From Cenarchaeum sp. (GTDB taxonomy: Archaea; Thermoproteota; Nitrososphaeria; Nitrososphaerales; Nitrosopumilaceae), in NCBI GenBank assembly GCA_963693095.2, contig OY843768.1:960001-1024000 (forward strand): a stretch of 64,000 bases of DNA. The letters run 5' to 3'. Both the position numbers and the translations under genes were made by a program. Within the stretch, counting starts at the first letter, position 1. Each line of letters begins with the position of its first letter. The notes beneath the pieces are model-generated. The model had not been told where the DNA came from and did no database searches. It saw only the letters and a list, made by a program, of their open reading frames with translations. Shown here in pieces: positions 54,676 through 60,785 of this stretch.

Positions 54676-55674
54676 CTACTCGGTCGAGTCTGGCCACATC
54701 ATCTTGCGCATGCGTCGGCCGACCTCCTCGATCTGGTGTGAATCGAGTGCCTTCATGTGGGACTCGAACGAGTCCTTGCCGCCAGACGCGTATGCCGACA
54801 CCCATTCAGAGTTGAACGTGCCGTCGCGTATCTCGCCGAGAACTCCGGCCATGCGCTCCTTTGCCTGCGCGTCGATCACGCGAGGCCCGCGCGTGAGGCC
54901 TCCGTATCGTGCCGTCTCGCTGACGCGCCTGTACATTCCGGCGACGCCATAGCGCTGAATCATGTCAACGATGAGCTTTAGCTCGTGGAGAACCTCAAAG
55001 TATGCTATCTCGGGCTGGTATCCGGCCTCGACTAGCGTCTCAAACGCGTTGATGACCATCGAGGCCGAGCCCCCGCACAGGTCAGCCTGCTCGCCAAACC
55101 AGTCAGTCTCGACCTCCTCCTGAAACGTCGTGCGTATGACTCCTGCGCGCGTGCTGCCGATCGCCTTTGCGAGGGCGAGTGTGCGATCCCACGCGTTGCC
55201 GGTGTGGTCCTGGTGAACCGCGACGATCGATGGCGTGCCAAACCCGTCAAGGTACGTCTCGCGAACCTTGGAGCCGGGCCCCTTTGGCGCCACCATGATA
55301 ACGTCAATGTCAGACGGCACGTCTATCCACTTCCAGTGGATCGCCGCCGCGTGCGAAAAGGAGAGCGCGTTGCCTGCAGAGAGCCCCTGCGCAATCTCCT
55401 CGCCGTACACCTTGGCCTGGACCATATCGGGTATGAGGACGTGGATGACGTCCGCTGCGGCGCACGCCTCGCGCACGCCCATGACCGTGTGACCGTCAGC
55501 AGTCGCCTTTTTCCAGCTCGCCCCGCCCTCCTTTAGGCCCACAATGACGTCGAGTCCAGAGTCCTTCATGTTGTTGGCCTGCGCGTCGCCCTGTATGCCA
55601 TATCCGATAACTGCGACCTTTTGGCCATTGAGCGGCTCGAGGCTAGTGTCTGCGTCTCCCCAGGTCTGCACCAT
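54676..55674 (-). CDS. ilvC: Ketol-acid reductoisomerase
   Basis: IGYGIQG, MVAPKGPG, ETDWFGEQADLCGG, YFEVLHELKLIVD. Confidence 0.96.
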   Translation of the reverse strand: MVQTWGDADTSLEPLNGQKVAVIGYGIQGDAQANNMKDSGLDVIVGLKEGGASWKKATADGHTVMGVREACAAADVIHVLIPDMVQAKVYGEEIAQGLSAGNALSFSHAAAIHWKWIDVPSDIDVIMVAPKGPGSKVRETYLDGFGTPSIVAVHQDHTGNAWDRTLALAKAIGSTRAGVIRTTFQEEVETDWFGEQADLCGGSASMVINAFETLVEAGYQPEIAYFEVLHELKLIVDMIQRYGVAGMYRRVSETARYGGLTRGPRVIDAQAKERMAGVLGEIRDGTFNSEWVSAYASGGKDSFESHMKALDSHQIEEVGRRMRKMMWPDSTE

Positions 55675-55766
55675 TTCAGGGCATGCTCCATTTCGCGCAA
55701 ATATTAACCAATGAGTGCGTTAGGGCTACCGTCATTTATAAAGACGGCGAGTCTCCCCGTGGCCTG

Positions 55767-55871
55767 ATGAGCGAGGACGAGTCTGATAGCAAGGCAGAGG
55801 CAGCCGAGCCAGAGAAGCCAAAGAAAAAGCCAGTCGAGATTGAGCTTGGTGGCAGCATGCGCTACAATTGA
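55767..55871 (+). CDS. 34-aa peptide, array unit 1
   Basis: MSEDESDSKAEAAEPEKPKKKPVEIELGG-SMRYN. Confidence 0.7.
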   Translation: MSEDESDSKAEAAEPEKPKKKPVEIELGGSMRYN

Positions 55872-56034
55872 CACAGGATTCCCGAGTGTCATCCTGCAAA
55901 CCCATAGTAAAGACCCCAAATGTGTCCAAGGCACGCAGCGCAGATCTGCCCAACCAAAAACCGGAACATGGTCTAGCCGCCACGCACATATGCCTCTGAA
56001 ATATTTATAAAGACGGCGAGCACACAGGCTGCTG

Positions 56035-56130
56035 ATGAGCGAGGACGAGTCTGATAGCAAGACCAAGACAGCCGAGCCAAAGAAAAAGCCGGTCAAGCTG
56101 GAGTTTGGTGGCCTTGTGCGCTACATTTGA
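56035..56130 (+). CDS. 31-aa peptide, array unit 2
   Basis: MSEDESDSKTKTAEPKKKPVKLEFGG-LVRYI. Confidence 0.7.
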   Translation: MSEDESDSKTKTAEPKKKPVKLEFGGLVRYI

Positions 56131-56284
56131 CACAAGATTCCCGAGAGTGCCACATCATAAATCCACAGTAAAGACTCCAAATGTGTCCAAGGCGTGCAGC
56201 ACAAATTCACCCAACCCAAAACTGTAACATGCCCCACACATGCCTCTGAAATATTTATAAAGACGGCTAATGTATAGGCTGCTG

Positions 56285-56380
56285 ATGAACGAGGACGAGT
56301 CCGATAGCAAGACCAAGACAGCCGAGCCAAAGAAAAAGCCGGTCAAGGTGAAGTTTGGTGGCCTTGTGCGTGCCGTTTGA
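56285..56380 (+). CDS. 31-aa peptide, array unit 3
   Basis: MNEDESDSKTKTAEPKKKPVKVKFGG-LVRAV. Confidence 0.7.
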   Translation: MNEDESDSKTKTAEPKKKPVKVKFGGLVRAV

Positions 56381-56416
56381 AGCAAGATTCCCGGGCAGCG
56401 TCACGGAGGGGCATAG

Positions 56417-56992
56417 TTGAACCCCAAAGACATCTATCACGCGACACAAGAGCAGATTCGTCACCACGATACGGTTTTGGAGGGGCAGAAGGCAAGGGCT
56501 CGCACACTCCTTAGCGTCGGTGCCGTGCTTCTCGGTATTATGGCCATCAGTCTGGGAAACTATGCAGGATTTGTCCAGGGAAATTATGCTGGAGTCATAA
56601 ACGATCCTCAAATGCTGCTGGTTCAGGCAATAGCGGTCACAATGATGCTCGGTGTGGCCGGACTCGGAGGGGCAATGACGTCAGTGATATTTTCTGCACG
56701 TGCGCTATCTGTGTCATACGCACATCAGCCCATAATGTCTGAAAACTTTAGAAATGGCGACTACACGGAGGACGAGATTTTGGATGCCCTGGTAAACATG
56801 CCTGAACACGAGACATACATGATGCTAACCAAGTCTTGTATTCAGGCACTGCGCAGCCGCGAGCAGGACCTGGACAAGATTGGGGCAAGGGCATCAATGG
56901 CACAAACGAGCCTGCTGTCTGGACTGGTGCTTGCCGGCACGGGTGCCATGGTTACGCTTGCCGTGTTCGTCCCGGCGCTTCTGGCCGTGTAG
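56417..56992 (+). CDS. Hypothetical 3-TM membrane protein
   Basis: Helix, KARTLL-TM1, TM2, soluble loop, C-terminal TM3. Confidence 0.7.
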   Translation: MNPKDIYHATQEQIRHHDTVLEGQKARARTLLSVGAVLLGIMAISLGNYAGFVQGNYAGVINDPQMLLVQAIAVTMMLGVAGLGGAMTSVIFSARALSVSYAHQPIMSENFRNGDYTEDEILDALVNMPEHETYMMLTKSCIQALRSREQDLDKIGARASMAQTSLLSGLVLAGTGAMVTLAVFVPALLAV

Positions 56993-57037: not shown

Positions 57038-57718
57038 ATGATCGGCGGCAGGCGCTCAGATAGGCCGTTGCTTGCGATCTTTGACGTCGAGGGTGTGCTC
57101 TTTGATGCCGAGTACCTCCCCATGCTCGCCGAGGAGCGCGGCAAGGAGGACGAGATTTGGGAGATCACGAGGCGAGGCATAGAGGGCACGATCAACTGGG
57201 AGGAGGGCCTCCGAAAGAGGGTCGACATACTGCGCGGCATAGACTATGGCACGTGTGAGCGCGTTGCTGACGCGCTGCCCATAATGACAGGCGCGCACGA
57301 GCTCTGCTCGACGCTAAAGGCCGCCGGATGGCGCATCATGGCAGTCTCGGGCGGATTTACGATAATGACTGACCGCCTAAAGCGCGAGCTCGGCCTAGAC
57401 ACCATACTCTCCAACGAGCTCGTCTTTGAGGACAACCAGCTTGACGGCGTCCGGATAAAGGTCGGCTCGGACAAGGCGTATGCGGCCTCTGCGGCAATCG
57501 CCGAGATGGGCGAGCGCGTCGAGGACACAGTCGCCATAGTCGACGGGGCCAACGACATAAAGCTCTTTGACATATGTGGCCTCGGAATCGCGTTTCGGGC
57601 ACAGGACATCGTCAGGGAGCAGGCCAACGCGGTACTAGAGAGAAAGGACCTCATCGATGCGCTCGACGTGATAAACAAGCACTATGGACTGGCCCTCAAG
57701 GCGCCATCCCGCGCCTAG
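57038..57718 (+). CDS. serB: Phosphoserine phosphatase (HAD family)
   Basis: FDVEGVL, VSGGF, DGAND motifs. Confidence 0.85.
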   Translation: MIGGRRSDRPLLAIFDVEGVLFDAEYLPMLAEERGKEDEIWEITRRGIEGTINWEEGLRKRVDILRGIDYGTCERVADALPIMTGAHELCSTLKAAGWRIMAVSGGFTIMTDRLKRELGLDTILSNELVFEDNQLDGVRIKVGSDKAYAASAAIAEMGERVEDTVAIVDGANDIKLFDICGLGIAFRAQDIVREQANAVLERKDLIDALDVINKHYGLALKAPSRA

Positions 57719-59560: not shown

Positions 59561-59788
59561 ATGGCAGACAAGGAGCTTGACGCGACGGGGCTGTTCTGCC
59601 CCGAGCCGGTCTTTCGCACAAAGATAGAGATCGAGCGCATGCAGGCAGGCTCGACGATTGCAGTAAAGGCCGACGATCCGGCCGCCGAGGACGACATATC
59701 AAAGTGGGCCACGCGCCACGGCCATGAAATCCTCTCGATGAAAAAGGACGGCAACGTCATAGAGTTTGAGATCAAAAAGGGCAAGTGA
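59561..59788 (+). CDS. tusA: TusA-family sulfur carrier
   Basis: LDATGLFCPEP, DDPAA..DI..W. Confidence 0.92.
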   Translation: MADKELDATGLFCPEPVFRTKIEIERMQAGSTIAVKADDPAAEDDISKWATRHGHEILSMKKDGNVIEFEIKKGK

Positions 59789-60785
59789 GCATGCAAAAGT
59801 CGGCTAGCGCGCAGGACATACTCGCAAAGGTGGGCAACACGCCGCTCGTGCGCCTCGAGTCACTCTCTGATGACACCAAGGAGGTTCACGCAAAGCTCGA
59901 GGGCCACAACCCGTTTGGCTCAGTCAAGGACAGGGCAGCATACTGGATGATACGCGAGGCCGAAAAGGAGGGACTCATCAACCGCACGCGCCGCACGATA
60001 ATAGAGCCGACATCAGGCAACACCGGAATCGCGCTGACCGGAATCGCGCGCCTCCTCGGCTATGACGCCGAGATTGTCATACAGAAAAGGCCAGCGACGA
60101 GACAAAGCGCATAATCAGGGCGATGGGCGCAGCAGTCCACGAGACGAGTGACGACCTGTGCCCAAAGGTCGGGGCAGGAACCGACCAGAGCATTGCGCTT
60201 GCCACGTCGATAGCTTCCAACCGGCCCACCGAGTACTATTCTCCAAACCAGTACGCAAACGAGGCCAACTTTAGCGGCCACTATCGCGGGACCGGACCGG
60301 AGCTCTGGGAGCAGACCGGAGGCAAGATTACGCACTTTTTCACCGGCGTCGGGACCGGCGGCACGATAACTGGCGTCGGGACATTCCTAAAGGAGAAAAA
60401 CCCCGACATCCGCATAGTCGGCTGCCAGCCGCAAAAGGACCACCTCATCCAGGGGTGGCGTAACTTTGACGAGTCGGCCAAGCCCGACCTGTTCCTAAAG
60501 CGCCAGGACGTCGTCGACGAGTGGGCGCACGTGACTAATGCCGAGGCCTTTGGAGTCGTTCGCGAGATACTCGGGGCCGACGGCATGCTAGTCAGCCCGT
60601 CCTCGGCAGCAGTGTATGCGTGCATGAAAAAGCACGACATTGGTGCCGGCGCGTGCGCCGTTGGCCTCTTTGCCGATGACGGCCGCAAGTTTGAGAGCGT
60701 GTATGTGGGGCAGAAAATAATGACAAAGGCCGAGTTTGATGACGCGCTTGCGCGCTCGGCGAACATGTCCGAGACGTTCTACTAG
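59785..60785 (+). pseudogene. cysM: PLP-dependent cysteine synthase family gene, frameshifted at ~60081 (real or sequencing error)
   Basis: VGNTPLV, KLEGHNPFGSVKDR, EPTSGNTG in one frame; EKASDETKRIIRAMGA...NQYAN, GTGGT in the next frame. Confidence 0.85.

Follow-up and report, generated by a model that had tools for sequence, protein, structure and literature searches.

A peptide gene array beside ilvC in an ammonia-oxidising archaeon suggests an undescribed peptide-plus-pore module

Type II toxin-antitoxin systems, holin-antiholin pairs and arrays of orphan immunity genes share an order in which a small charged partner comes first and a larger gene of toxic type second. In such pairs the partner survives as an orphan and diversifies with its cognate, as in the cassettes of a peptide gene and a three-helix membrane protein (3TM) gene described here. 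Classic membrane toxins of toxin-antitoxin systems are usually under antisense RNA control, and a DNA-binding domain for autoregulation is common, but not universal, among type II antitoxins. As for the membrane proteins, a recent preprint assigns PycTM to a pJV1-SpdB3 3TM family and describes its relative PucTM as a hexameric channel of ~15 Å that mediates abortive infection, the ligand site of both proteins having still to be resolved (bioRxiv 10.64898/2026.08.12.744502). A Streptomyces SpdB3, possibly of the same family as pJV1 SpdB3, is highly toxic in E. coli and works within a DNA-translocation complex (PMC4447253).

The window, namely the whole 64,000-nt stretch of DNA analysed here, corresponds to C1:960001-1024000 of a genome of 2.0 Mb, 60% GC and 99.55% completeness (G000). 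It contains three tandem units on the plus strand, with starts spaced 269 and 250 nt apart, between two genes that lie outside the cassette: ilvC, encoding ketol-acid reductoisomerase (54676..55674, minus strand), and a serB-like gene encoding a HAD-family phosphatase (57038..57718, plus strand). Each unit opens with an identical TATA-box-containing promoter 15-mer, ATTTATAAAGACGGC, at 55734..55748, 56003..56017 and 56253..56267, respectively, the third being the promoter of an intact cassette. The 15-mer occurs exactly three times in the whole 2.0-Mb genome, always within the array. Its first base precedes the ATG by 33, 32 and 32 nt in units 1, 2 and 3, a TATA-to-start spacing that points to leaderless transcripts. 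Positions, promoter and ATG distances all agree with the initial annotation, which had recognized three repeated, individually promoted units with a TATA spacing of ~32 nt. It had also read two glycines, five residues and a TGA stop at the end of each ORF, as is indeed seen in peptide 1 (55767..55871, 34 aa, GG-SMRYN), peptide 2 (56035..56130, 31 aa, GG-LVRYI) and peptide 3 (56285..56380, 31 aa, GG-LVRAV). The peptide N-termini are acidic and rich in proline and lysine. A single in-frame gap of 9 nt accounts for the length difference between peptide 1 and the other two. Peptide 2 is a mosaic, the start of which resembles unit 3 and the end unit 1. The array stretch has ~50% GC, compared to ~60-63% in the flanks.

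Judged from the sequence, the true unit is the peptide gene plus a 3TM gene, and units 1 and 2 trail decayed starts of the latter. The initial annotation, which stated that no transporter was encoded in the window, overlooked the membrane-protein gene at 56417..56992 (plus strand). This gene encodes a 191-aa protein with three hydrophobic helices, and its TTG start lies 36 nt after the stop of peptide 3, behind a GGAGG Shine-Dalgarno-like site (56405..56409) positioned 7 nt upstream. The same 36-nt distance from stop to start recurs in the genus genome G004 and at G000:237616. Peptide 3 is by position the cognate partner of the 3TM protein, and peptides 1 and 2 are orphans. Spacer 1 (55872..56002) and spacer 2 (56131..56252) share 64-65% identity with the linker and first 3TM codons that follow unit 3. 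Spacer 1, absent from the rest of G000 outside the array, consists of a decayed 36-nt linker and a 3TM 5′ end in which the ribosome-binding site and TTG start are lost; spacer 2 holds a decayed linker and 3TM 5′ end with the same losses. The array is thus no free-standing system: what has been duplicated is the 5′ half of a cassette of two genes. The same promoter-peptide-linker-3TM layout exists at G000:237616 and 1037791, one locus being intact with a 36-nt gap and the other lacking the first 3TM helix. Translation running on from peptide 3 into the 3TM gene, which is in frame with it, was rejected, because two stops and the separate ribosome site intervene.

The window 3TM protein has no match in Pfam, NCBIfam or PADLOC, including PF18967 and the PADLOC PycTM models, and a PDB sequence search also gave no match. 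The genus profile retrieved 197 representatives at E<=0.001. Of the distant members scanned against the PADLOC PycTM models, 9/10 matched at E<=0.003 (best 4.9e-9), compared to one of 24 genus members, which matched weakly (E 0.003). A mixed profile (A6) aligned with archaeal PycTM at 95.7% (E 9.8e-9, 144 columns), whereas the genus-only profile reached 2.2%. Because the mixed profile aligns and the genus-only profile does not, the link is transitive, and the family appears to be a remote relative of the PycTM/pJV1-SpdB3 3TM proteins at the superfamily level, via intermediates only. The mixed-profile model A3 recovers a true PycC-PycTM operon, one Atlas cluster set contains 11% PF18967, and weak sub-threshold matches to Pfam 8xMP occur in 5/55 distant members. 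The 3TM alignment holds no invariant, catalytic-looking residue. Fold search with the 3TM model returned nothing at E<=0.001, but only generic helical bundles; the best by VIA (Z 11.0, rmsd 4.0, 177 aligned) is a BAR domain, with which many other helical bundles tie. Prediction of a complex of two 3TM copies and peptide 3 with their own alignments, run without controls, scored 0.23 against a mark of 0.32. Queries of low sensitivity found no relatives in viral contigs, phage records or plasmids. No cyclase adjoins any G000 cassette or any peptide-type cassette examined, and the sole PF00211 match in G000 is located away from the cassettes. A complete Pycsar-type operon of PycC and PycTM was found in another ammonia-oxidising archaeon (G325, L053:746-1968), its PycTM having 21 relatives in the protein collection. 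In G308, a 3TM homologue (L045/L132) has an additional helix at the N-terminus as well as a charged linker that loosely resembles a partner peptide, possibly a tethered form; a profile search among 152 proteins found no natural peptide-3TM fusion, L045/L132 being likewise undetected.

Relatives of the window 3TM protein were found in 4/101 related genomes, all of its own genus. The genus profile yielded 40 loci in four genomes, at 5-18 loci per genome, and none in G003; this expansion is confined to one genus. The 40 loci comprise 29 with an intact 3TM gene, seven with a broken 3TM gene and an intact peptide, two broken without a peptide and two at contig ends, about half of the calls being made by a fixed rule and the remainder from three-frame output; a shortened peptide might still count as intact. 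An upstream ORF of 27-79 aa precedes the 3TM gene in all 29 intact cases, and in 27 of these a TATA-like box lies ~28-33 nt before the ORF start, by inspection. In G000 itself, such a peptide accompanies 7/7 3TM paralogues. A search for charged TATA-led small ORFs throughout G000 gave 52, including the partners of all seven paralogues, two partners of remoter three-helix proteins and five orphans with no more than a stub of the 3TM gene left (one assigned by eye). This genome-wide orphan scan covered G000 alone. Two further tandem peptide duplications reside in G002. Beyond the 40 loci, orphan peptides thus number seven (five in G000 and two in G002), which together with the seven broken loci gives at least 14 intact peptides with a broken or lost 3TM gene. 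The cassettes are mostly single and inserted between housekeeping genes, with no obvious defence islands by eye. For 20/24 pairs, the nearest peptide belongs to one of the three nearest 3TM proteins, and peptide similarity correlates with 3TM similarity (Spearman 0.29, permutation p 0.0002), a co-divergence that linkage alone could produce. Altogether, the pairing of peptide and 3TM protein itself is highly probable.

Several other loci of G000 resemble these cassettes. At C1:1074743 and 127505, both on the minus strand, TATA-led peptides are paired with three-helix proteins that are too remote for the family profile and bear a KAS/RAS-IFL motif like that of the PycTM N-terminal helix. At C1:1459843, an intact peptide is followed by a 3TM gene that ends after nine codons at a low-GC, opposite-strand multi-gene island, and the cassette is intact in G004. 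At C1:1755938, an intact cassette is followed by a second copy of the peptide, which has retained the two charged tails but differs in its central core. The genome also carries 30 copies of an IS66-type terminal repeat (e.g. C1:47306, 843684, 1636958 and 1956125), belonging to a 1.5-kb element with a single ORF and an 8-bp target duplication. In 11/30 copies a TATA box follows the end at a distance of 18-21 nt, and in 12/30 within 8-30 nt, compared to 2% of random positions; the insertion looks promoter-directed, and three such promoters are those of peptide cassettes. Mobilisation of the cassettes by IS66 was rejected as not cassette-specific, since IS66 ends also lie at the TATA boxes of unrelated genes. 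Tandem 34-nt AT-rich repeats are present on both contigs (C1:1106280-1106491 and C2:8441-8516).

The array is real and its copy number is variable. Concern that it might be an assembly repeat is met by contigs from three public runs (X2-X4), in which the two unit junctions and the gene behind them recur with 0-1 differences, although these runs come from one study, possibly the source study of the window, and no single contig covers the entire array. In the same runs, an 867-nt contig represents a one-unit allele, and a low-depth contig of run X5 that skips 250 nt may be a collapse or an allele with two units. The corresponding site of G004 holds a single peptide, the ending of which resembles unit 1, and one 3TM gene. 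The window 3TM protein is 59% identical to that G004 allele, whereas the next housekeeping gene is 97% identical. In G003 the site is empty, with 79 nt of plain intergenic DNA, and in G002 the 445 nt between ilvC and serB (L098:1038-1483) contain a TATA-like box without a cassette match. Peptide 1 is most similar to the sole peptide of the G004 allele with one unit. It seems that the 3TM gene at the window site was replaced while an older peptide gene remained. In G001, a 3TM fragment lies immediately 5′ of serB, at a contig end. Elsewhere in the window, a cysteine-synthase-like gene (59785-60785) is split into two ORFs of 109 and 220 aa in different frames.

We propose a module with two components. 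One is a short peptide, charged and for the most part disordered, whose small variable core would in the window lie around the two glycines and probably form a β-turn; the other is a 3TM protein of the PycTM/pJV1-SpdB3 superfamily. The 3TM protein would oligomerise into a membrane-disrupting pore like PycTM and PucTM, with the peptide taking the place of the cyclic nucleotide as ligand. By binding its own 3TM allele from the cytosolic side, the peptide would hold the pore closed; once this short-lived peptide is lost through virus-driven shut-off, stress or loss of the cassette, the pore would open and cause abortive infection or addiction. While one cassette replaced another, the promoter, the peptide gene and ~90 nt from the 3TM 5′ end might have been duplicated on site to give the array. 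Units 1 and 2 would persist in it as orphan inhibitors, of which unit 1 matches a rival allele from the same samples. Among inhibition, activation and transport as cargo, inhibition is the direction of control that we prefer, with probability evenly balanced for and against it. It is favoured because the 3TM protein, which is of a toxic type, is never seen intact without the peptide in the genus, because the peptides have outlasted their partner at least 14 times and carry their own promoter, and because constitutive ligands that hold membrane effectors off have a precedent (PMC13712596). Part of the orphan asymmetry would nevertheless be expected anyway, since the 3TM gene is a larger target and the promoter comes with the peptide. 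This reading, in which the peptide inhibits its cognate toxic pore and the array stores orphan inhibitors, recently formed and variable in copy number, might equally well be right or wrong, and a more tentative proposal is that each pore allele is shut by its own hypervariable micropeptide, with orphans stockpiled against incoming or co-resident cassettes.

Alternatively, the peptides could be cargo, and the 3TM oligomer a dedicated export channel for secreted signals or effectors, which several peptides could share as in the array, the orphans using paralogous channels. The central PucTM channel of ~15 Å (bioRxiv 10.64898/2026.08.12.744502) and the presence of the possibly related Streptomyces SpdB3 in a DNA-translocation complex (PMC4447253) are in line with a conduit, as are the three peptides per 3TM protein in the array, the strong expansion in one genus and the glycine pair 4-5 residues from the peptide C-terminus in 7/8 members of the window clade. 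However, every 3TM clade comes with a peptide type that looks unrelated to those of the others, and no export signal is shared among the peptides. In some clades the partner peptides bear zinc-knuckle-like cysteine pairs, which point to a folded cytosolic part, and the characterised relatives of the 3TM protein are toxic effectors. Export is unlikely. Beyond the charged core, the peptides at L067, L068, L074, L091, L013, L032, L006 and L007 contain one or two CxxC pairs or C2H2-like motifs.

Less probable again is that the peptide is an activating ligand or sensor which, when released, cut or altered on infection, opens the pore. PycTM is switched on, not repressed, by its ligand (PMC13712596), and with such a control homologues without a peptide would be harmless, which fits the distribution outside the genus. 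Wider profiles matched 37/401 genomes of the order, 15/401 of the phylum and 7/301 of another class, mostly once per genome and often with a broken gene. Among 47 loci examined outside the genus, 27 intact homologues were scorable. In favour of the module, a small charged ORF adjoins one end of the gene in 10/27, compared to 3/54 control long ORFs, under a rule that was fixed after inspection of the data and with kin that are not independent. The other 17/27 fail the rule, a few having candidates by eye and one being a Pycsar operon. A peptide is apparently dispensable for the presence of a 3TM protein there, which counts against inhibition. Yet in the genus, intact 3TM genes without a peptide amount to 0/29, and activation gives no reason to keep peptide genes after loss of the 3TM gene, as seen in at least 14 cases, or to carry extra, constitutive-looking copies.

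A third alternative, more doubtful still, accepts the cassette as real and regards units 1 and 2 as neutral leftovers of recent duplication and cassette replacement that will soon decay. The initial annotation had argued for selection on the peptide from an in-frame length difference and a greater drift of the spacers. The in-frame 9 nt stands, but the drift holds for indels only, with gaps of 4, 2 and 11 nt between spacers 1 and 2 compared to the single 9-nt gap between their coding regions; substitution divergence is equal, at 84% identity over aligned columns of the spacers (99/118) and 85% of the coding regions (82/96). Moreover, pN/pS among the array copies is near 0.8 (0.75-0.86), and the copy number differs between alleles. 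By contrast, start, stop, frame and the 15-nt promoter are kept while the ribosome-binding site and the 3TM start are lost; under neutrality, survival of both ORFs of units 1 and 2 has P=0.05, and P=0.011 with the TATA boxes added. The gene of peptide 1 and the G004 peptide gene share 88% nucleotide identity with a pN/pS of 0.34, and the same retention of a peptide is observed at five other sites. Selection on units 1 and 2 is modest.

It is highly improbable that the peptides are double-glycine precursors cut by C39/PCAT peptidases into pentapeptide signals, as the initial annotation had raised with reference to Phr systems. A GG-type motif does stand ahead of a putative core, and GG followed by exactly five residues is found in nine peptides of the nearest clade. 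Since 7/8 peptides of the well-supported eight-member 3TM clade of the window have GG near the end, the motif is real at that depth. GG plus five or four residues is nevertheless confined to this nearest clade; more distant homologues carry 20-23 mainly charged residues after GG or SG, the core differs in other clades, and the tail after GG varies from 4 to 23 residues across homologues. A PCAT leader has hydrophobic residues at positions -4, -7 and -12 on a helix (PMC10885120). In the array, position -7 is V, but position -4 is E, E and K and position -12 is P in all three peptides, which departs from that pattern. No C39 peptidase (PF03412) was detected in G000 at 99.55% completeness, in a search whose control matched in 7/14 genomes, or in the three other genus genomes searched (72%, 84% and 99% complete); G001, G002, G004 and G019 gave none and G017 one match. 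The array peptides have no Pfam or NCBIfam match, leader families included, an Atlas search with the peptide gave no usable match, and the 3TM alignment offers no catalytic-looking residue. Phr/RRNPP peptides have an N-terminal hydrophobic secretion signal and an adjacent gene for a TPR-type receptor. A secretion signal of this kind is absent from the acidic, proline- and lysine-rich N-termini, and the neighbours are ilvC, the 3TM gene and the HAD phosphatase gene, with no TPR-type receptor gene among them. In a low-confidence model (pLDDT 55, pTM 0.12), the peptide forms a two-residue hairpin around GG, so that GG is more likely a predicted turn in a short binding hairpin than a cleavage site. 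Equally remote is the reading of the peptide ORF as a cis-acting leader that tunes only 3TM translation: it is upstream and closely coupled in 29/29 genus cases, but the ten partner ORFs outside the genus are divergent (six) or downstream (four), from which the peptide appears to act in trans, a profile of the seven closest peptides ranks two divergent ones first and second of 3,786 segments (E 0.029 and 0.97), and the window 3TM gene has its own ribosome site.

Taken together, the analysis points to a so far undescribed module of peptide and pore in ammonia-oxidising archaea rather than to a secreted pentapeptide signal. In the literature searched, mostly open papers and including PMC13069673, we found no description of a peptide-partnered PycTM-like cassette. 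The initial annotation saw here an ammonia-oxidising archaeon with individually promoted, diversifying peptide genes, part of a cassette that is apparently undescribed. This view has held up, and ‘antitoxin’ was among the options it listed. The repeated two-gene module is unannotated, its small gene being at or below the usual limit of gene calling, and the array illustrates how arrays of orphan small genes build up and vary within a population. Should the peptide control a PycTM-like pore, the nucleotide-gated antiviral effectors would be extended to peptide gating. On the more tentative proposal above, the cassettes would form a guard or addiction system of archaea in which 30-residue peptides write a lock-and-key code, one genus holding ~5-18 locks per genome. 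Peptide control would also put some 30 natural cognate pairs at hand for specificity tests and for locating the PycTM/PucTM ligand site, and a direct toxicity-and-rescue experiment would be feasible in laboratory hosts.

Compared to known systems, the cassette is similar to the Pycsar and Pucsar TM modules (PycC + PycTM, PF18967) in being a two-gene module, the second gene of which encodes a 3TM protein of the same superfamily, and in its patchy, low-GC and fast-changing character. It differs in lacking an adjacent cyclase, in having a peptide of 27-80 aa as the partner, and in reaching up to 18 paralogues per genome together with orphan partner arrays. With the precursors of PCAT and with Phr peptides, the cassette peptides of the nearest clade share GG near the C-terminus, but they have no amphipathic leader, C39 enzyme, signal peptide, adjacent TPR receptor or conserved tail length. 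Like type II toxin-antitoxin systems, the cassette links a small partner to a larger putative toxin gene, as in 29/29 intact genus cassettes. However, the array peptides of 31-34 aa have no DNA-binding domain or family match and are modelled as disordered, and divergent and downstream layouts of the cassette occur. The proposed logic, in which a constitutive ligand holds a membrane effector off, is that of Panoptes (OptS/OptE) and Hailong (PMC13712596). Their ligands are enzyme-made nucleotides or ssDNA and their effectors have a 2TM fold, whereas the cassette would combine a ribosomally made peptide with a 3TM effector.
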